Both the position numbers and the translations under genes were made by a program. A model generated the notes under the pieces. That model had not been told where the DNA came from. It ran no database searches and was given only the letters and a program-made list of their open reading frames with translations. From Gemmatimonadales bacterium (lineage in GTDB: Bacteria; Gemmatimonadota; Gemmatimonadetes; Gemmatimonadales; GWC2-71-9): a DNA stretch of 64,000 bases. This document shows positions 9,158-19,952 of this stretch, one piece after another. Position 1 is the stretch's first letter; each line of letters begins with the position of its first letter. The stretch lies in the NCBI GenBank assembly GCA_036741715.1, contig DAINRR010000006.1, positions 11,106 through 75,105 of the forward strand. Reading direction: 5' to 3'.

Positions 9158-9286
9158 CGCGCCGTAGCCGCGCCTTTTTCCTCACCGACATGCGTAGCGA
9201 TGGTGCCGGTCCGGCGAGCTCGATCGCCGACCTTGGGGCCGCTGTACCGCCATCCCACCCGGGAGGCGGCCACCCAAGGAGGCCCC

Positions 9287-10465
9287 ATGCGTCGCACGCT
9301 CACGCTGCTGTTTCTCATCCTCGGCGCCGCCTGCGCCGGAGACATGCCGACCACCGAAAGCGAGCTGAGCCTCGCATCCGCCCGCTCCGACCACGCACGC
9401 GAGGCGCTCGCGCGCCGGTTCGCGCGCGCCCTCGCCGAACCCGCCTTCCGTTCGGCAGTGGGAACCGCGCTCGGCGCGTCCCGCCATCCGGAAGGCAAGA
9501 TCCATGTGGGTCGCTTTCTCCGTGCGGATGGCGGGCGCGCGGCCCGCGCCCTCGGCGCCGATGCTGCCGAGCTCGCCCGTGCCGAAGGGCTCGAGGCGTA
9601 CTTCCCGGTGCCGGCGCATCGCGCGGCATGGCAGGGCGGAGCCGATCTCCTCGTCGGGACGATCGGCGCGGACGCCGATCAGCCCGTCGGGTTCGACATG
9701 CGGGGTCAGCGCATCGCGCTCGACCCGAAGGCACCCCCGGTGGCTCCCGTGCTCGCGGTGGTGCCGGTGGAAACCGATTTCGGGCCGGAAGGGGGCGGGC
9801 TCAGCGCGGCCGAGATGTGCGCAGGATGTGACGACGGCGAGGGTGGCGTCGGGTCCGGCGGGGGCGGCTCGTCGATCACGCCGGGCCTGTACCTTCGCAC
9901 GAGTCACCTCAGGGAGAGCTTCGAGTCCTGGCTCAAGGGCAGCCCGGAAATCGAGATCCTCGTGCTCGGGCAGAAAGGCGCCACGGATTCCCTCACGAAG
10001 TACCAGTGCGCCGGCAACTTCGCCCCGGGGGCCTATTATTTCGACCAGAACTCGCTCGACTGGAGCGGCACCGCGCTCATCATGTCGCAGGCACAGCTCG
10101 ACGCATACAATGCCCAGCACCCGGGTCAGGCCGTCCGCCTCTTCTTCATGGAGGACGACGACACATCGTGCGAGGTCCGCGCGAACAACACCGACCTCCG
10201 CCAGCTGCTCACCAGCGTGGACTCGCTCGTCAAGGGATTGTCCGGCGGGCACGCCGAAGAGTCGGCGACGGGAAGGGCCTTCCGCTATTTCAAGGCCGCG
10301 CAGAAGATCCTCAGCGTCGTGGCTTCCGCCATCAGGACCAATGACGACCTGATCGGCAACGCCGTCGAGGACGTGACCACCACCGAGCGGTATGCGGGCT
10401 ACAACTGGATCATCAAGGGAGCGGACGGCAGGACCAATGGGTACGTGAAGCTCGAAATGCGGTGA
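9287..10465 (+). CDS. Hypothetical lipoprotein
   Basis: ORF 9200..10465 trimmed to ATG 9287 preceded by AGGAGG. Lipobox LFLILGAAC. No family recognised. Confidence 0.7.
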   Translation: MRRTLTLLFLILGAACAGDMPTTESELSLASARSDHAREALARRFARALAEPAFRSAVGTALGASRHPEGKIHVGRFLRADGGRAARALGADAAELARAEGLEAYFPVPAHRAAWQGGADLLVGTIGADADQPVGFDMRGQRIALDPKAPPVAPVLAVVPVETDFGPEGGGLSAAEMCAGCDDGEGGVGSGGGGSSITPGLYLRTSHLRESFESWLKGSPEIEILVLGQKGATDSLTKYQCAGNFAPGAYYFDQNSLDWSGTALIMSQAQLDAYNAQHPGQAVRLFFMEDDDTSCEVRANNTDLRQLLTSVDSLVKGLSGGHAEESATGRAFRYFKAAQKILSVVASAIRTNDDLIGNAVEDVTTTERYAGYNWIIKGADGRTNGYVKLEMR

Positions 10466-11136: not shown

Positions 11137-13509
11137 ATGGCGACCTTGCGTCACAGATCGACCGTTCTCTTCCTCCTGGCCGCGGCTTCGCCGGCAGCGG
11201 CGCAGGAATTCGGTGCCGCCGCCGCCGTTGCGGGCCGGGATGTCATCATCGGCCAGGCGTCGAATCAATATGCGCCGGGCTATGTCTACATTTTCCGCGC
11301 GAACGCGCAGGGTGCGTGGCGCGTCGCGTCCCGATTTGCCGCGCCGGACTCCGCGCGCCATACCGGCTTCGGCCGCCGCATCGCCGTGGACGGCAATACG
11401 ATGCTCATCGCCGAGAGCCCGCTCGACAGCGCCACGGCAGGACGGGTTCACGTGTATGAGCGCAATCAGGCAGGCACCTGGCGACATGCGGGCATGCTGG
11501 CCCCGACCCCGGTTGCCAACGGAGACCGGGTCGGCCGTGGCCTGGCGCTCAAGGGGAATGTCGCGATCATCGGCGCCAGCCGGACCGACAGCATGCGCGG
11601 TGAGGCCTGGGTGTTCCGGAAGCAGGGGAACCAGTGGCGCCAGGAAGCCCGGCTCCGCCCGGCGGACGTAGCGCCCGGCTCGGCCTTCGGCAATACGGTG
11701 GCGTACGACGGCCGCCTGATCGCCGTTGCGGCCCAGCAGGCCGACTCGAACGCCGGGGCGGTGTACATCTTCCGTGACAGCGCGGGGACGTGGAAGCAGG
11801 AGCAGAAGCTCACCATCCCCGTCCAGCCGGCGTTTCGGCCGAATGCGCAGTTCGGGGCGGCGTTGCTCTGGCACGAGGGCATGCTCTACGTCGGCGCCCC
11901 GGGCCTGACCAACGGCATGGGCGCGATCATCCGCTTCACGCACGACTCCGCCAACAACCGCTGGAACCCCGTCGGCGGACTGCTCCCCTTCGACGCCACG
12001 CCCGGTGCGCAGTTCGGCACGACGATGACGATGATGGGGAACGAGCTCTGGGTCGGCGCGCCCTTCCTGGCACAGGGGCGCGGCCGCGTCTTCCGCTACC
12101 TGCGGGACACCTCGGGCGCGTTCACCAGGGCCACGAAGGTCGCGTACGATTCGGCCGACGCGCAGGTCGCATTCGGGGGGGTACTCGCCGGCCAGGGCAA
12201 CCTGGCGGTCGTCGGGATGAGCAACGCGGACTTCGGCGAAGGCCGCGCCTCGATCCTTGCGATCGCATCGAACGGCAGCGTCACTCAGCGGACGGTGAGC
12301 GGCGAAGTCTTCCGGCCGGCGGCCGTCGCAGGACGCGAAGTGAACTGCAGTTCCGGCAAGGCGAGCGAGTTCGGGTGCGAGAAGGTCAACCTTCTCGCGC
12401 TCCTGCCGGTCTCGGCGATGGGAGGCAAGCAGGGCACGCGACTGAACGATGTCTGGGGCTGGACCGATCCGGAAAGCGGCAAGGAGTACGCGATCGTGGG
12501 ACGGTCGGACGGCACGTCGTTCGTCGACGTGTCCAATCCGAATCAGCCGCGCTACCTGGGCGACCTTCCGAAGACCGCGGGCTCACCGTCCGCCGTCTGG
12601 CGGGACATGAAGGTCTACCGCAACCACGTGTACATCGTCGCCGATGGATCCCAGGCGCACGGCATGCAGGTCTTCGACCTCACCCGGCTGCGCCGCATCA
12701 CGGCGCCGCAGACCTTCACGCCCGATTACCACTACACCCGCATCAACAGCGCGCACAACATCGTCATCGATACGGCGTCCGGATTCGCCTATATCGTCGG
12801 GGCGGGGTCCGGAGGCGAGACCTGCGGCGGCGGATTGCATATGGTCAACATCAAGGACCCGAAGAACCCCTCCTTTGCCGGCTGCTTCCAGGACAAGGCG
12901 ACAGGCCAGGCGGGAACGGGCTACTCGCACGACGCACAGTGCACGGTCTATCATGGCCCCGATACGCGCTACACCGGGCGGGAGATCTGCATCGGGGCGA
13001 ACGAGAATGCGATCAGCATCGCCGACGTGACCGACAAGCAGAATCCGGTGGCCGTGGGCCGGGGCACCTACCCGGACGTCGGGTACGCGCACCAGGGCTG
13101 GTTCAGCGACGATCACCGCTACTGGTACCAGGACGACGAGCTCGACGAGCTGCAGGGGAAGACGAAGGGCACGCGCACGATCATCTGGGACCTGCAGAAG
13201 CTCGACGATCCCGTGGTGGTCGGCCAGTACGAGGCGCCGGTCAACGCGAGCGACCACAACCTCTACATCGTCGGCGACCGGATGTACAACTCGAACTACA
13301 CGAGCGGCCTCCGCGTGGTGGACATCAGTGACCGGACCAAGCCGAAGGAAGTCGGTTTCTTCGACACGGTACCGGTCGGTCCGGAAGCCCCGGGCTTCGG
13401 AGGGTCGTGGAGCAACTATCCGTTCTTCAAGAGCGGGACGATCCTCGTCACGAGCGGCAATGAGGGTCTCTTCCTCGTGAAGGACCAGACCACCAACCTG
13501 ACGCCATGA
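11137..13509 (+). CDS. Secreted beta-propeller protein, FG-GAP-like N-terminal half plus choice-of-anchor-B/LVIVD-type C-terminal half
   Basis: ATG preceded by AAGGAG. Signal peptide LFLLAAASPAAAQE. C-terminal half NDVWGWTDPESGKEYAIVGRSDGTSFVDVSNPNQPRYLG...VYRNHVYIVADGSQAHGMQVFDLT...GLRVVDISDRTKPKEVGF. Confidence 0.8.
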   Translation: MATLRHRSTVLFLLAAASPAAAQEFGAAAAVAGRDVIIGQASNQYAPGYVYIFRANAQGAWRVASRFAAPDSARHTGFGRRIAVDGNTMLIAESPLDSATAGRVHVYERNQAGTWRHAGMLAPTPVANGDRVGRGLALKGNVAIIGASRTDSMRGEAWVFRKQGNQWRQEARLRPADVAPGSAFGNTVAYDGRLIAVAAQQADSNAGAVYIFRDSAGTWKQEQKLTIPVQPAFRPNAQFGAALLWHEGMLYVGAPGLTNGMGAIIRFTHDSANNRWNPVGGLLPFDATPGAQFGTTMTMMGNELWVGAPFLAQGRGRVFRYLRDTSGAFTRATKVAYDSADAQVAFGGVLAGQGNLAVVGMSNADFGEGRASILAIASNGSVTQRTVSGEVFRPAAVAGREVNCSSGKASEFGCEKVNLLALLPVSAMGGKQGTRLNDVWGWTDPESGKEYAIVGRSDGTSFVDVSNPNQPRYLGDLPKTAGSPSAVWRDMKVYRNHVYIVADGSQAHGMQVFDLTRLRRITAPQTFTPDYHYTRINSAHNIVIDTASGFAYIVGAGSGGETCGGGLHMVNIKDPKNPSFAGCFQDKATGQAGTGYSHDAQCTVYHGPDTRYTGREICIGANENAISIADVTDKQNPVAVGRGTYPDVGYAHQGWFSDDHRYWYQDDELDELQGKTKGTRTIIWDLQKLDDPVVVGQYEAPVNASDHNLYIVGDRMYNSNYTSGLRVVDISDRTKPKEVGFFDTVPVGPEAPGFGGSWSNYPFFKSGTILVTSGNEGLFLVKDQTTNLTP

Positions 13510-14624
13510 TCCGATCGCTTCGCGCCCTCGTGGCGCTCGCCGTCGGGGCCGCCTGCGCGGCCCCGGGGGCGACGCGCCAGACCCCCACGCCGGCCGGGAC
13601 GGGCGTGGGGGTCCGGCTTTACGTCCCGAATCAGAACGACGCCTCGGTGACCATTCTCGATGCGGCGTCCGGCACCACGCTCACCACCGTCGACCTGCGG
13701 ACAGCGGGCTTCACCGCGAATGCCAAGCCCCACGCGGTCGTCGCCGAGCCCGACGGCTCGGCGTGGTATGTCTCCCTGATCGGTGACAACTTCGTCGCCA
13801 AGTTCGATTCCGCAAACCGGTACGTCGGCCGAGTCCCGATGGAAACGCCGGGGATGCTGGCACTCGACGCGAGGCACGATCGCCTGTACGCGAGCCGGTC
13901 GATGACCGCGGTGAGCCCGCCGGCCAGCATCGGCGTGATCCGCCGGAGCGACATGCGGCTCCTCGAAGAGCTCGACGTCCTCTTCCCTCGACCGCACGCG
14001 ATCGCGGCCGCGACGACCTCGGGACGCGTGTACGTCTCGGGACTCGGCGACAACCGGATCGCGGTGGTGGATACGGCCGGACGTGTCGAACTGGTGCAGG
14101 TCCCGGGTCCACTGCATGCCTATGTGACGTTCGCGCTCTCGCCGGACGGGTCCCGGCTCGCGGCCACGACGCAGCTGACGTCGAGCCTCGTCGGGTTCGA
14201 TGTGCGGACCGGCAGGCCGGTGCCGGCCGCCTCGGTCCAGGTTCTCCCCTTCGGCTATCAGGTGAGCTGGTCGCCGGACGGGCACTCGATCTGGCTCGGC
14301 AACCAGCGGAGCGGGGCCGTCACGATGGTGGATGCCCGGACCTGGGCCGTGCGTGACGTGATCCGCGATTCCGCATTCGCGGAGCCGCATGGGGTCGCGA
14401 TCTCGCGGGACGGTGCCACTGTCTACGTCTCGAGCCACGGCGTTCAGGCCGGCTCGTCGACACCCACCCCGGCCGACACGATGCACGGTGGCATGCACGC
14501 CGGTGAGGGTGCCGCGCGCGGTGGCGGCACGCTCGCGATCATCGATGCCGGTACCCGCACCGTCCGCAGGGTGGTCCGAGTCGGGCGTTACGCCGTGGCC
14601 ATCGATCTCGGCGGGACCCGATGA
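13506..14624 (+). CDS. YVTN/YncE-type beta-propeller repeat protein (secreted)
   Basis: ATGA overlap with the upstream gene. Signal peptide LVALAVGAACAAP. Repeats such as LYVPNQNDASVTILDAASG, VYVSGLGDNRIAVVD, ALSPDGSRLAATT and AISRDGATVYVSS. Confidence 0.8.
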   Translation: MIRSLRALVALAVGAACAAPGATRQTPTPAGTGVGVRLYVPNQNDASVTILDAASGTTLTTVDLRTAGFTANAKPHAVVAEPDGSAWYVSLIGDNFVAKFDSANRYVGRVPMETPGMLALDARHDRLYASRSMTAVSPPASIGVIRRSDMRLLEELDVLFPRPHAIAAATTSGRVYVSGLGDNRIAVVDTAGRVELVQVPGPLHAYVTFALSPDGSRLAATTQLTSSLVGFDVRTGRPVPAASVQVLPFGYQVSWSPDGHSIWLGNQRSGAVTMVDARTWAVRDVIRDSAFAEPHGVAISRDGATVYVSSHGVQAGSSTPTPADTMHGGMHAGEGAARGGGTLAIIDAGTRTVRRVVRVGRYAVAIDLGGTR

Positions 14625-16489
14625 AGGGAGCCAGGCTGCTGGTGCTCGCGGCCGCGGCACTCGGCTGCGCGTCGCGGTCCGCAGCGACGCAGGGCGCGGC
14701 ACCGTCATTCATGCCGGGTCTCGAGCGGCGCGTTGCCTCGATTCCGATTGCCGACAGCGCGGGCCGGCAGTTTGCACTCCCGTTCCTGGGCGGTCTGGAG
14801 CGGCCGCGGCCGCAGCTCGTGGACATCGACGCGGATGGGGACCTCGACCTGTTCGTGCAGGAGTTCACGAACCGGATGACGTTCTTCGAGCGCACCGATT
14901 CGGCGGGGGAGGCGCGCTGGACGTGGCGTACCGATATGTGGGAGCAGCTCGAGATCGGCGACTGGAGCCGGTTCATCGACCTCGACGGCGACGGCGACCA
15001 GGACGTGCTCGCCGAATCGCCCTACAGCTTCATCCGCTGGTACCGGAACGACGGCTCGGCGCGCCAGGCGCGGTTCACGCTCGCGGCGGACACGCTCTAC
15101 GACGTGAGCGGCGAGCCGATCTTCGCGGACCGGCAGAACATCCCGCAACTCGCCGACCTCGACTGCAACGGGAGGATCGACCTCATGCTGGGTCGAGTGG
15201 ACGGCACGATCACGCGCTTCGAGCTGCGCAACATCGAGGGGAACGCCCCGCGCTTCGGGTTCATCACCGATCGCTTCGAGGGAATCCAGATTCTCGGCGG
15301 GGACGCGACGCCCGGCGGTCCGCCACCAATGGCCATCCCCGGAGCCGGTGGCGTCACGCCGAGCCTGCACGGCGCGAACACGATGGCGCTGGTGGACCTC
15401 GACCGCGACAGCGACCTCGACATCCTCTGGGGCGATTTCTTCGAGCCGGGCCTGCTCTGGATCCGGAACGATGGCGGATGTGGCGGGCCGTCGATGCGCG
15501 AGCCGCCGGTCCCCTTTCCGGCGGGAAGCCCGATCCGGACCAGCGGCTACAACGCGCCGACCGCGGGCGACCTCGACCGCGACGGGGATCTCGATCTTCT
15601 GGTCGGCGTGCTGGGCGGGGCATACAATCCGACCCGCACCTCCCGCGACAACCTGTACCTTCTCGAACAGACCGCGCCGCGCACGTTCACGGTTCGCACC
15701 ACCCGCTTTCTCGACGGCTTCGACCTCGGCAGTGAGACCAGCCCGGCCCTGTTCGATCTCGACGCCGACGGCGATCTCGACATGCTCGTGGGGAACAAGA
15801 TCGAGCCGGAAGGGGATGTGGCCGGCCTGTACCTCCTGGAGAACGTCGGATCGGCGCAGGCCCCGTCGTTCCGGATGCGGCCGCGGCTCCCGATCGGCCC
15901 CGCATATCACTATTCCCCCGCGCTCGGCGACCTCGACGGCGATGGTGATGCGGATCTCGTGCTCGGCACGTGGCGCGATGCGCTGCTCTATTACCGCAAC
16001 GATGGCTCCCGGGAGGAGCCGCGCTTCGTGCTCGCCGATTCGATGCTCGCGCAGCTCTCGCGCGGGAGCCACGCCTCCCCGACGCTCGGTGATGTCGACG
16101 GCGACGGCGATCTCGACCTCTTCGTCGGAGAAGCCTCGGGAACGATCAACCACTTCCGGAACGACGGCAGCCGATCCGCGCCGAAGTTCAGCCTGGTGTC
16201 CGACGAGTGGAACGGATTGCAGGAGGGCCGGCGGACGGCACCGCGCCTCGTCGACATCGATGGCGACACTGACCTGGACCTGGTCATCGGCACCGAGGCG
16301 GGAACACCGGTGCTGTTTCGCAATACCGGGTCCGCGAGGCGTGCCGAGTTCATCCGGGAGCGCGAGGCGGCGGCATGGCCGGCGCTGTCGGTGCCGGCGT
16401 TCGGCGATCTGGATGGAGACGCGGATCTGGATGTCGTGATCGGGAACGCGGCGGGCGGGCTGATGCACCTGGAGGGAGCCGGGAGATAG
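14621..16489 (+). CDS. FG-GAP/VCBS repeat protein (CRTAC1/ASPIC-like) lipoprotein
   Basis: ATGA overlap with the upstream gene. Lipobox LAAAALGC. At least 8 repeats of the D-x-D-G-D-G-D-x-D calcium-loop type (DIDADGDLDLFV, DLDGDGDQDVL, DLDRDGDLDLLVG, DVDGDGDLDLFVG ...). Confidence 0.85.
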   Translation: MKGARLLVLAAAALGCASRSAATQGAAPSFMPGLERRVASIPIADSAGRQFALPFLGGLERPRPQLVDIDADGDLDLFVQEFTNRMTFFERTDSAGEARWTWRTDMWEQLEIGDWSRFIDLDGDGDQDVLAESPYSFIRWYRNDGSARQARFTLAADTLYDVSGEPIFADRQNIPQLADLDCNGRIDLMLGRVDGTITRFELRNIEGNAPRFGFITDRFEGIQILGGDATPGGPPPMAIPGAGGVTPSLHGANTMALVDLDRDSDLDILWGDFFEPGLLWIRNDGGCGGPSMREPPVPFPAGSPIRTSGYNAPTAGDLDRDGDLDLLVGVLGGAYNPTRTSRDNLYLLEQTAPRTFTVRTTRFLDGFDLGSETSPALFDLDADGDLDMLVGNKIEPEGDVAGLYLLENVGSAQAPSFRMRPRLPIGPAYHYSPALGDLDGDGDADLVLGTWRDALLYYRNDGSREEPRFVLADSMLAQLSRGSHASPTLGDVDGDGDLDLFVGEASGTINHFRNDGSRSAPKFSLVSDEWNGLQEGRRTAPRLVDIDGDTDLDLVIGTEAGTPVLFRNTGSARRAEFIREREAAAWPALSVPAFGDLDGDADLDVVIGNAAGGLMHLEGAGR

Positions 16490-16522
16490 CACCGCCGTTG
16501 CGGGTGCCGGCGGTGAGATGCA

Positions 16523-16574
16523 GACGAGGGATCTGCTCCGCGAGTCCTGGGACTCGCCGGGCAGATCCCTCGTC
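16523..16574. terminator. Long nested palindrome between convergent genes
   Basis: The outer stem gacgagggatctgc / gcagatccctcgtc is 14 bp. It encloses an inner stem gcgagtc-ctgg-gactcgc. The whole element is a nearly continuous hairpin of about 23 bp. Confidence 0.55.
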
Positions 16575-16588
16575 ACTTGTCCGCCTCG

Positions 16589-16620
16589 GGACGACCGCGG
16601 GTGCCAGCCCCCGGTCGTCC
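16589..16620. terminator. Second stem-loop between convergent genes
   Basis: ggacgaccg-cgggtgccagccc-cggtcgtcc is a 9-bp stem. It lies just 3' of the minus-strand stop at 16627. Confidence 0.45.
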
Positions 16621-16626
16621 GGTCGA

Positions 16627-18690
16627 TCAGGGTGTCAGTGGCTGCTTCGCCTCCAGCTTCGCCGACCAGAGTCCCGAGTTGAAGTCGGTGAAGAGGATGT
16701 GCCCCTTCCACGGCATCGCGTTCATGACGAAGGAGGCGTTCGGCGTATACCCCTGCGGATCGTACGGTTTGTACACCGCGATCTCGCGCCGCTGGTCCGC
16801 AAGGTTTCCGACCAGCTCGCCCGAGACGTCCACCACCCGCAGGCCGCCATCGTAGTAGGCCTGGTACATCACGTCGTCCTCGACGATGATGTCGTGGGAG
16901 CCGAACTCCTCCTGGTGGTACTTCGCGATGTTCCGCGGATGGCGCGGGTCGGTGAAGTCGACGATGTGGGTATACCCGGCGGACGTCTGCGGGACGCCGC
17001 CACGCTCCGGGTTGACGGCGCTCAGGCCGTAGTTCGTGCCCTCCCAGACGCGTCCGGAGCGCGACATGATTTCGTCACCGAGGAAGAGATAGACCTTCCC
17101 GGTCGACTTCTGGTGATAGGGAAAGATCTCGTGCGTCGCGCCGCTCGTGGTCGGGTAGGTGGCGATGAGCACGGGCTTCTCGATCGTCCCGCCGTACTTG
17201 CCGTTGCCGACATCCACCGCGACGACCCCGGTGCCCCATTCCGACGAATAGGCGATGCCGTCGTGGACCCAGACGTCGTGCACGCGCGACTGCGGGTGAT
17301 CGTACTCGCTGACGAATTTCGGCTGATAGATGTCGCGCACGTCCACGATGACGTACTTGTCGCCGCCCGAGATCGCGAACAGGTAGTCGTTGGTGGCGAA
17401 CATGTTGTGCACGCCGCCGGTCAGCTGCTCGTTGAAGGTGGCGGCCACCTTCGGGTGCGCCGGATTGGCGAGATCGAGGATCACGACGCCGTTCACGCGA
17501 TTCGATGCGCCTTCACGGGACAGCACCCCGTACCGTCCGTCCGGTGACACCGTGACGTCGTTGATGATGCGGGCATCCACCTTGATCGAGTCGGACCGCA
17601 CCGGGTTGCCGAGGTCGGTGATGTCCATGACGTAGGCCCAGCCGTCCCCGCCCCACGTGCCGACGAGGGCGTAGTCCCGGCCATCCTTCCCCGTGAACGG
17701 CCAGAAGTCGGAGGTATGCACGTGAGTGATCGAGCCCCGGCCCGTGATGTTGATCCGGCGGCGCGCCTCCCTCGGCCGCACCTCGAGCACGCGGCGCGCG
17801 GTGGCCGTACCGGCCGATGCCAGGAGGGTGTACCGGCCGGGCACTTCCGCGGCGAAGAGACCGCGATCGATGATTCCGGTCGCGCCGGGAGCGGCGATCG
17901 TGTCGTCGGGCGTGTAGGTGTAGCTCCAGGTGATCGGCACGTCGGGCACCGCGACGCCGTTGGCCCGCTTGGCCGCGGCCTTGAGATGAATCACATCGCC
18001 CGTCCGGATGCTCGATTCGTCGAGCGTGATCGATACGCTTGCGACCGGGTTGGCCGCGACCGTATGCGCCACCTGCGCCGAGGAGCCCTCAGCTTCGGCA
18101 GTGATGGTGACGGGGCCGGGCCGATGTGCGGTGACGTGGCCAAAGCGATCCACGCTCGCCACCGATTCGTTCGAGCTGCGCCAGCGCCAGTTGAGGTCGC
18201 GCCCGGGGCGCTCGCTGCCGTCCGCGTGCAGCGCGCGGGCGCGGTGCGGCAGGGTCACGCCCGTGTAGAGGCGGCCGGAGTCGGCCACGAGCTCGACCTT
18301 CGCGAGGGGCGGCCACTTCACCGTGACCGGAATGGTGAGGGTCACCGGCGGCGTTGCCGTGTCCGGGGGGACGGTGGACACGTTCACCTGGTACGTGCCG
18401 GCGCGCACGCCGCGAATGCCGTCGAAGGTGATCTGCAGGCCGTTCCGGGCACCGCTCACTCGCAGCGGCGGGTTTTCGACCACCCCGCCCCGCGCATCGA
18501 AGGCCGTCAACTTGACCGGCACGACCGAGTCGCCGGCGACGATCTCGAGGCTGGCCGGCTCCGCGACGAGGCGGGTCACGACGCGCACCGAATCCCGTCC
18601 CTGCTGGGCAGCGAGAGGTGCGGCGAGGCCGAGCGCCAGCACCGCCGGCGCCATGCGCCTGACGAAGCACCGGGCATGCGTTACGTTCAT
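16627..18690 (-). CDS. Secreted Ig-like (Big_2-type) domains plus LVIVD-repeat beta-propeller protein
   Basis: 687-aa ORF with signal peptide APAVLALGLAAPLAAQQ. N-terminal Ig-like repeats (VTLTIPVTVK, VTITAEAEGSSAQVAHTV). C-terminal propeller segments AYVMDITDLGNPV, VVILDLANPAHPK, YVIVDVRDIYQPK and GLRVVDVSG. Confidence 0.8.
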   Translation of the reverse strand: MNVTHARCFVRRMAPAVLALGLAAPLAAQQGRDSVRVVTRLVAEPASLEIVAGDSVVPVKLTAFDARGGVVENPPLRVSGARNGLQITFDGIRGVRAGTYQVNVSTVPPDTATPPVTLTIPVTVKWPPLAKVELVADSGRLYTGVTLPHRARALHADGSERPGRDLNWRWRSSNESVASVDRFGHVTAHRPGPVTITAEAEGSSAQVAHTVAANPVASVSITLDESSIRTGDVIHLKAAAKRANGVAVPDVPITWSYTYTPDDTIAAPGATGIIDRGLFAAEVPGRYTLLASAGTATARRVLEVRPREARRRINITGRGSITHVHTSDFWPFTGKDGRDYALVGTWGGDGWAYVMDITDLGNPVRSDSIKVDARIINDVTVSPDGRYGVLSREGASNRVNGVVILDLANPAHPKVAATFNEQLTGGVHNMFATNDYLFAISGGDKYVIVDVRDIYQPKFVSEYDHPQSRVHDVWVHDGIAYSSEWGTGVVAVDVGNGKYGGTIEKPVLIATYPTTSGATHEIFPYHQKSTGKVYLFLGDEIMSRSGRVWEGTNYGLSAVNPERGGVPQTSAGYTHIVDFTDPRHPRNIAKYHQEEFGSHDIIVEDDVMYQAYYDGGLRVVDVSGELVGNLADQRREIAVYKPYDPQGYTPNASFVMNAMPWKGHILFTDFNSGLWSAKLEAKQPLTP

Positions 18691-18734
18691 GGAACTCCCC
18701 CAGAAGGCTGGACGACGACAATGACGCGGAAGCT

Positions 18735-19952
18735 GTGATTATGGTCTTCGCACAATCGCATCGCAAGCGGCTGGTCCGTGTGGCCACCACCGCACTCGCG
18801 GGCGGAATGCTCCTGGCCGCCTCCGGTTGCGCATCGCCGAACGCCGGCGCCGACGCCGTCCGGTCCCCCGGACCGGCCGGTACCCGTCCGGTCCCTTCGA
18901 ACGACTACTGGGTTTACGTCGGGGCGGAATCCGCGGACCTCATCCACCGGATCCGGTTCGGCCCCGCCGGAGCCACGGTGGAGCGCACCATCCCCGTGGG
19001 CGAATCGCCGGTCGAGATGGAGGGGCCACACGGCCTGCAGATCTCGCGCGACGGCCGCTATCTCCACATGACCACGGGCCACGGCTCACCCGACGGCAAG
19101 TACTGGCGCTACGACCTGGGCCCCGACACCCTGACCGCGCCCGGGATCTTCCTCGGCTACTTCCCCGCCTCGCTCGACGTCACGCCGGACGGGCTGTACG
19201 CCTTCGTGGTCAACTTCAACCTGCACGGACGAATGGAGCCGTCGAGCGTCTCGGTGATCCATACGCCGTCGAACACCGAGGTGGCGCGTCCGATCACCTG
19301 CACGATGCCGCACGGCAGCCGGGTCTCGCCCGACGGCGCCCATCACTACTCCGCGTGCATGATGGACGACCAGCTGGTGGAGATCGATACCCGTACGTTC
19401 CAGGTGTCGCGACGTTTCAGCGTTGCCCCGGGACGCGAAGGCCCCCTGCCACTGGACGCGGGGCCGGAGCATGCAGGCCACGCAGGGGCATCGATGCCGG
19501 CGCCCGGCTGCTCGCCGACCTGGGCCCAGCCGTCGGCGGACGGGAAGAAGGTCTTCGTCGCCTGCAACAAGGCGGACCAGATCCTCGAGGTGGATCGGGA
19601 GGGGTGGAACGTTTCGCGCCGCTTCGCAACGGGACGCGGGCCGTACAATCTCGCGGTCAGTCCGGACGGCCGATTCCTCCTCGCCTCGCTCAAGCAGGGT
19701 GGCGGTGTGCAGCTTTTCGACCTGGAGTCGGGCAGCAGCGTCCTGCAGGAGAAGAGCTCGACGACCGTCACCCATGGTACGGTCATCACGCCGGATTCGC
19801 GCTACGCGTTCGTGACCAGCGAGGGCGTGGGCGCTGAGCCGGGAAAGGTCGATATCTACGACCTGCAGACTCTGCAGCGTGTCGCGTCCGTGGACGTGGG
19901 CCAGCAGGCGGGCGGTATCGCGTTCTGGAAGATGGCGGCCGGGGGAAGCTGA
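18735..19952 (+). CDS. YVTN/cytochrome-D1-like beta-propeller lipoprotein
   Basis: GTG at 18735 (an alternative ATG lies at 18741). Lipobox MLLAASGC. Repeats ISRDGRYLHMTT, VTPDGLYAFVVN, VSPDGAHHYSAC, VSPDGRFLLASL and ITPDSRYAFVTS. Confidence 0.8.
   Translation: MIMVFAQSHRKRLVRVATTALAGGMLLAASGCASPNAGADAVRSPGPAGTRPVPSNDYWVYVGAESADLIHRIRFGPAGATVERTIPVGESPVEMEGPHGLQISRDGRYLHMTTGHGSPDGKYWRYDLGPDTLTAPGIFLGYFPASLDVTPDGLYAFVVNFNLHGRMEPSSVSVIHTPSNTEVARPITCTMPHGSRVSPDGAHHYSACMMDDQLVEIDTRTFQVSRRFSVAPGREGPLPLDAGPEHAGHAGASMPAPGCSPTWAQPSADGKKVFVACNKADQILEVDREGWNVSRRFATGRGPYNLAVSPDGRFLLASLKQGGGVQLFDLESGSSVLQEKSSTTVTHGTVITPDSRYAFVTSEGVGAEPGKVDIYDLQTLQRVASVDVGQQAGGIAFWKMAAGGS

Follow-up and report, generated by a model that had tools for sequence, protein, structure and literature searches.

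Two conserved modules of exported propeller proteins in a Gemmatimonadales genome contain candidate metal-binding propellers related to the phosphotriesterase Sb-PTE

Five exported propeller proteins, here called A to E, are encoded side by side in an 8.8-kb stretch of a Gemmatimonadales genome, within the 64,000-nucleotide window of contig DAINRR010000006.1 (assembly GCA_036741715.1) that we analyzed. The five genes form two modules, A-B-C and D-E, which are conserved independently of each other in other genomes and are juxtaposed in this one. One protein in each module, A in the first and D in the second, contains a seven-bladed propeller of LVIVD-like repeats whose best structural match is Sb-PTE, the phosphotriesterase or haloalkylphosphorus hydrolase of Sphingobium sp. 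TCM1 (5hrm, 5ioj), and both proteins keep residues aligned to five of the six metal ligands of that enzyme. On balance, and with only modest confidence, we lean toward a model in which the locus encodes two exported, Sb-PTE-like metalloenzyme modules, each accompanied by propeller partners.

Relationship of A and D to Sb-PTE

AlphaFold2 (AF2) models of the two propellers reached a predicted local distance difference test score (pLDDT) of 90.6 and a predicted template modeling score (pTM) of 0.90 for A (amino acids (aa) 385-790), and 83.9 and 0.86 for D. When these models were searched with Foldseek, the top match in the PDB was 5hrm in both cases (E value 1.9e-13 and query TM-score (TMq) 0.65 for A; 4e-11 and 0.70 for D), and the remaining matches were generic WD40 propellers. 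A also matches Sb-PTE by sequence (E value 4e-7); the D propeller alone gave no sequence-level match in the PDB. The first-pass annotation of this DNA had described LVIVD proteins as having no established function, a description that now appears incomplete: the nearest solved structure is that of a characterized enzyme, albeit one with a sub-threshold LVIVD match.

Sb-PTE carries a binuclear Mn center at the propeller axis. In the 2016 work of Mabanglo and colleagues, the two Mn ions are reportedly bound by E201, H258, H317, H389, E407 and H475, and the enzyme is said to contain the disulfides Cys146-242, Cys411-443 and Cys542-559. As an alignment template we used a full-length, 583-aa homolog from a Sphingobium xenophagum plasmid, which matches 5ioj at every one of the 48 residues compared (100% identity). 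All twelve ligand and cysteine positions carry the expected residue types in this protein. Alignment of the D family with the template by hhalign (probability 82%, E value 1e-5, 334 columns) placed D H428, H471, H520, E540 and H599 exactly on Sb-PTE H258, H317, H389, E407 and H475. The corresponding alignment of the A family (probability 91.6%, E value 8e-7) placed H540 on H258 and a DELDE acidic cluster next to E407. The A candidates H540, H598, H652, E668 and H707 were paired with the five D residues, in the order given above, through an hhalign alignment of A with D, and the residues that we propose to bind metal in A are H540, H598, H652, E668/E671 and H707. Local phmmer and hmmsearch matches set A H540 on both H389 and H258, two residues that are equivalent in repeat position and lie in different blades.

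The order of the five candidates is shared by A, D and Sb-PTE, and their spacing is similar. Each candidate histidine is found where the first strand of a blade begins, with four blades contributing, and a single glutamate completes the set. These residues are kept in 94 of 95 A homologs and, among 67 divergent D representatives with 29-57% identity, in 48-57. A and D differ from Sb-PTE in their extra N-terminal modules, their co-encoded propeller partners and their pattern of disulfides; six cysteines are invariant in the choice-of-anchor-B domain of A.

The template itself (L174:1843-3594, on S. xenophagum plasmid p3) is annotated only as "hypothetical protein"; the plasmid is conjugative, and about 0.6 kb separates the gene from an IS6100 transposase. 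Four further sphingomonad plasmids carry near-identical homologs, and a Novosphingobium replicon encodes one that is more distant (67%).

Domain architecture and export signals

The 790 residues of A comprise a Sec signal peptide (aa 1-22), an integrin-like FG-GAP_2 propeller (about aa 23-384) and a choice-of-anchor-B/LVIVD propeller (aa 403-783). A is a full member of TIGR04312/PF08309, a family without an assigned function: it scores 454 bits against TIGR04312 choice_anch_B over model positions 1-364 of 364 (cutoff 100) and 26.8 bits against Pfam LVIVD PF08309 (gathering cutoff 20.2). The N-terminus scores 90.3 bits against FG-GAP_2 (PF14312), above the gathering cutoff, and the N-terminal half of the A-family profile aligns with integrin alpha propellers (E value 6.6e-14). 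The LVIVD/choice-of-anchor-B label that A had been given was therefore correct as far as it went, and the additional integrin-like propeller had been missed.

In D, a Sec signal peptide is followed by an Ig-like (Big_2) region (about aa 30-302), composed of three intimin-like Ig-like domains, and by an LVIVD-type propeller (aa 303-687). On its own the D propeller falls below the cutoffs of both models (LVIVD 19.9 against 20.2 bits; choice_anch_B 47.1 against 100). The LVIVD model is matched by 13 of 16 members of the D family (best E value 1.1e-24), and we regard this family as a sister group of TIGR04312/PF08309. Over the 120 homolog clusters listed, D is 69-94% identical to its relatives, and all of those with a named source come from Gemmatimonadota; the propeller is 80-96% identical within the close family. 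More widely, D-type propellers are found in over 5,500 cluster representatives at an E value below 1e-3.

TIGR04312 is named for a variable C-terminal sorting or anchor signal, and neither A nor D has one. A ends seven residues past its choice-of-anchor-B domain and D ends with its propeller; scans with domain libraries found no further domain after either propeller. The similar C-terminal endings of A and D, remarked on in the first-pass annotation, proved to be a real trait of both families. All 120 close D homologs and 87 of 120 A homologs end in proline, usually as hydrophobic-x-Pro.

The partner proteins are propellers of other types. B and E are seven-bladed propellers of the YVTN type, which also includes the Methanosarcina S-layer protein 1l0q, YncE and the hydrazine synthase beta subunit, and score 52.5 and 33.5 bits against the YVTN repeat model TIGR02276 (cutoff 27.85 bits). 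Both fail every equivalog model tried, namely L-NosZ, the lactonase-type NosZ (NF052460, cutoff 700 bits; E 45.9, B 31.9), hydrazine synthase beta (NF052340, cutoff 560 bits; B 48.7, E 33.3), YncE (NF052280, cutoff 400 bits; B 55.1, E 21.3) and the pyrroloquinoline quinone (PQQ)-associated propeller (TIGR03866, cutoff 287 bits; B 57.2, E 51.8). The E family has 142 positions that are at least 90% conserved, and its invariant cysteines C189, C208, C259 and C277, together with several invariant histidines, lie in Met-rich motifs of its own (TCTMPHG, CMMDD, CSPTW and VACNK). Such residues could form two disulfides or a metal site. C scores 140.7 bits against FG-GAP_3 (PF13517)/VCBS in seven stretches, above the gathering cutoff, and in its family, too, 142 positions are conserved to 90% or more. 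Like the N-terminal half of A, C resembles bacterial integrin-type FG-GAP/VCBS propellers. The integrin beta partner is absent here; instead, the FG-GAP module of A is fused to an Sb-PTE-like propeller, and C is co-transcribed with one.

All five proteins, as read from their sequences, carry the export signals previously ascribed to them: those of A and D are of the Sec type, and those of B, C and E conform to the lipobox rule of PROSITE. We considered whether B, C and E could be lipoproteins that tether soluble A and D, and rejected this as a general rule because the lipobox is not conserved. A lipobox-like motif is present in 13 of 49 E orthologs and in about half of the B and C orthologs, and most E orthologs have Sec-type cleavage sites.

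Conservation of the A-B-C module

Both the A/B and the B/C overlap in this operon are ATGA stop/start overlaps, in agreement with the first-pass annotation. A scan with the A-family alignment, using one genome per species, identified 80 A loci. B and then C directly follow A in 39 of these (identity 35-86% for B and 40-82% for C), four have A and C without B (L022, L034, L035 and L051), and in two B is present and the contig then ends; in total, C is kept in 43 loci and B in 41. Loss of the YVTN partner is thus compatible with retention of the VCBS partner. The other 35 loci have neither B nor C, about nine of them being truncated. Hosts of A-B-C include Gemmatimonadales, Longimicrobiales, Rhodothermales, Balneolaceae (among them cultured Fodinibius and Aliifodinibius) and Acidobacteriota. 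B and C orthologs also follow A in L010 and L011, where the flanks are unrelated, and clustering of all flanking open reading frames (ORFs) at the A loci found nothing conserved beyond A, B and C and antisense shadow ORFs. The idea of a two-component LVIVD-YVTN module, put forward when this locus was first annotated, therefore holds in part: a B ortholog follows A in at least four lineages, but the module of A has three components.

The stand-alone A copies do not form one clean paralog clade, an arrangement that we rejected because they are interspersed in a neighbor-joining tree; in some cases the genome has A-B-C as well, and the stand-alone gene is its second A copy. In a separate arrangement, two tandem A paralogs (42-47% identity to A) lie beside a single B-C pair (L024, L027, L033, L036, L042, L064 and L084), and in L036 and L064 B-C is upstream of both A copies.

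Conservation of the D-E module and its independence from A-B-C

An E ortholog (65-76% identity) is divergently oriented beside D in three loci (L007-L009) that lack A-B-C and have different flanks. In a scan of metagenomes, E divergently adjoins D in 46 of the 62 loci with enough upstream sequence, with E being 57-80% identical, and at one further metagenome locus E lies downstream of D. The adjacency of LVIVD and YVTN genes on which the first-pass proposal depended does, then, recur in other genomes. No A, B or C gene lies near D at any of 80 D loci, and clustering of the flanking ORFs at the D loci found no conserved neighbor besides D and E and antisense shadow ORFs. Conversely, a locus with a close A relative (L014, 87% identity) lacks D-E out to 5 kb from A-B-C, and the 8.8-kb "arsenal" of the first-pass annotation is therefore a lineage-specific juxtaposition.

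Only one of the 80 A loci, L070, has a D-like gene. In this Gemmatimonadales UBA1142 genome the gene (L070:5707-7545, minus strand; 35% identical over 650 aa) is immediately upstream of A-B-C, and no E ortholog is found near it. At L009, D is closely followed downstream by a third YVTN-type propeller gene (L009:12501-13469; 322 aa, 25% identity to E and 29% to B).

Discussion

We propose that A and D could be periplasmic or surface metal-dependent hydrolases, because both retain residues aligned to most of the Sb-PTE metal ligands. In this model the candidate residues would bind metal and support catalysis, and the N-terminal modules (the integrin-like propeller in A and the Ig-like region in D), together with B and C or with E, would bind or present a substrate that is probably macromolecular. 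The co-encoded propeller partners probably form a physical complex with A or D, giving A-B-C and D-E assemblies, or else present substrate to them. We infer a partnership because A-B-C is translationally coupled, because adjacency is kept across phyla and because the sequences are under very strong constraint.

Several observations weigh against this model. Identity to Sb-PTE is only 14-17%, and the alignments with it have moderate probability (82-92%) and use a single-sequence template. The ligand list for Sb-PTE was checked only by residue type in the 583-aa Sphingobium homolog. In the alignment of that homolog with A several other histidines are offset by a few positions. For the sixth ligand, the bridging E201, no equivalent could be placed: hhalign sets it beside R374/I375 of D, and an invariant aspartate (D378 in D, D490 in A) lies about three residues out of register. 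That the five candidate ligands would cluster in space at the propeller axis is itself read from the alignment. As for the partners, the Sb-PTE homolog on the Sphingobium plasmid has no YVTN neighbor, and about one third of the A homolog loci lack B and C despite having room for them, which indicates that the partners are not obligatory for every A-family member. Finally, the classical annotation of Ig-like, FG-GAP, YVTN and LVIVD domains is as modules of surface adhesins or S-layers.

This last point leads to the main rival, in which the five proteins would be non-catalytic adhesion or S-layer-like proteins of the cell surface, their propellers and Ig domains binding ligands or building a layer and their histidines having a structural role. 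The domain types are indeed those of archaeal S-layer and surface proteins, with B and E matching 1l0q best; the N-terminus of A resembles integrin alpha, D has intimin-like Ig domains and LVIVD proteins are treated in the literature as surface or attachment proteins. TIGR04312, moreover, is defined by its association with surface anchors. Adhesion does not readily account for conservation as strong as that of the D propeller, for the way invariant His, Asp and Glu residues coincide in repeat position with the metal ligands of Sb-PTE, for the lack of a C-terminal anchor domain in A and D, or for Sb-PTE being the best structural match of both, and we consider it unlikely, though a rival to be taken seriously. 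A different enzymatic role, with the YVTN propeller, B or E, as the catalytic or cofactor subunit of a periplasmic redox or copper enzyme, is suggested by weak NCBIfam and PDB matches of B and E to L-NosZ, the beta subunits of hydrazine synthase and quinohemoprotein amine dehydrogenase (QH-AmDH), and thiocyanate dehydrogenase, and by the invariant histidines and cysteines of the E family (TCTMPHG, CMMDD, CSPTW). These matches score far below the family cutoffs (46 against 700 bits for L-NosZ), E has no cupredoxin or heme domain, and neither module has a conserved cytochrome, copper chaperone or maturation gene beside it. We therefore regard such a role as improbable.

The first-pass annotation had instead explained the locus by its history, as a recently duplicated LVIVD plus YVTN pair that had grown into a local arsenal. 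The same two domain types do occur twice within 8.8 kb, and both LVIVD proteins end in TP. By BLASTP, A and D are 28% identical over their last 123 aa (E value 3e-5), and hhalign aligns the whole propellers in register, blade for blade (probability 99.65%, E value 4.6e-25, 329 columns), at 22% identity. Because the identity is so low, the two LVIVD propellers are taken to be ancient paralogs rather than products of a recent event. Comparison of B with E, in contrast, gave only generic repeat similarity: the BLASTP E value is 0.003, phmmer finds no match between them, and both are nearer to the archaeal S-layer YVTN protein 1l0q, the best PDB match of each, with 54-59 bits for the single sequences and E values of 3e-44 (B) and 1.4e-21 (E) for the family profiles. 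The profile similarity of B and E is what any two YVTN propellers would give. The pair was thus not duplicated as a unit and the YVTN partners are not specific paralogs of each other; with the two modules apart in almost all other genomes and a flat GC content across the region, a recent duplication is hardly credible: the identities, together with the independent distribution of the modules, already refute it.

If A and D are indeed Sb-PTE-like hydrolases, a broader and rather doubtful extension suggests itself: choice-of-anchor-B/LVIVD propellers could be exported binuclear-metal hydrolases of Sb-PTE stock, forming a large class that has been overlooked, and in several phyla they would be obligate heteromers with YVTN proteins (and with VCBS proteins in A-B-C). 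Were this so, they would constitute a new kind of enzyme complex, built from several propellers, located in the periplasm or at the surface and acting on a natural, non-xenobiotic substrate.

The families, the fold and the ligand set were already known. What is new is the link between them, the added domains and the two conserved multi-propeller modules. We found no mention of "choice-of-anchor B" in the literature searched, and no LVIVD-YVTN pairing is described in the abstracts and passages of the literature found. LVIVD/choice-of-anchor-B proteins are widespread and annotated only as surface or hypothetical proteins, and a tie to the Sb-PTE metal center provides a concrete biochemical hypothesis for this poorly understood family. 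It also suggests an evolutionary origin for Sb-PTE, which acts on man-made flame retardants. In addition, the A-B-C and D-E modules point to specific partner proteins, and the Fodinibius and Aliifodinibius isolates are cultured hosts of A-B-C.

Gene coordinates and genomic context

The positions of the five genes and their main features are collected in Table 1. An ORF check of the window found all five ORFs where the first-pass annotation had placed them, and metagenome gene callers call the same five genes in six contigs that encode an identical A protein.

Table 1. Coordinates of the propeller genes and selected features within the window
Feature	Position	Strand	Description
Gene A	11137..13509	+	790 aa; first gene of the A-B-C operon
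Gene B	13506..14624	+	372 aa; YVTN-type seven-bladed propeller, lipobox-type signal
Gene C	14621..16489	+	622 aa; FG-GAP/VCBS repeat protein, lipobox-type signal
Gene D	16627..18690	-	687 aa; Sec signal peptide, Ig-like region, LVIVD-type propeller
Gene E	18735..19952	+	405 aa; YVTN-type propeller, divergent from D
D/E divergent intergenic region	18691..18734	.	44 bp
Choice-of-anchor-B propeller domain of A	12343..13485	+	Candidate metal residues; TIGR04312 match
Propeller domain of D	16630..17784	-	Candidate metal residues; AF2/Foldseek
C-terminal Pro codons	16630-16632 (D), 13504-13506 (A)		

The gene callers start E so as to give 403 aa rather than the 405 aa of the ORF used here, and the true start of E, and with it the E lipobox, is therefore uncertain. 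The only sigma-70-like match for D, at the level of a consensus match, lies at 18766-18738 on the minus strand, within the annotated 5' end of E.

GC content is 0.67-0.72 over the whole window and stays flat at 0.67-0.69 over the five-gene region, and we rejected a horizontally acquired island for this reason. The source names of close homologs agree with placement of the DNA in Gemmatimonadales.

Upstream of the locus, an ORF at 9200-10465 of the window encodes 421 aa from its first start and is called as 392 aa in L001. It has no Pfam match and is not conserved beside A-B-C in other genomes. This ORF comes after an ABC_tran/ABC_tran_2 transporter pair together with transglutaminase-like and macro-domain genes.

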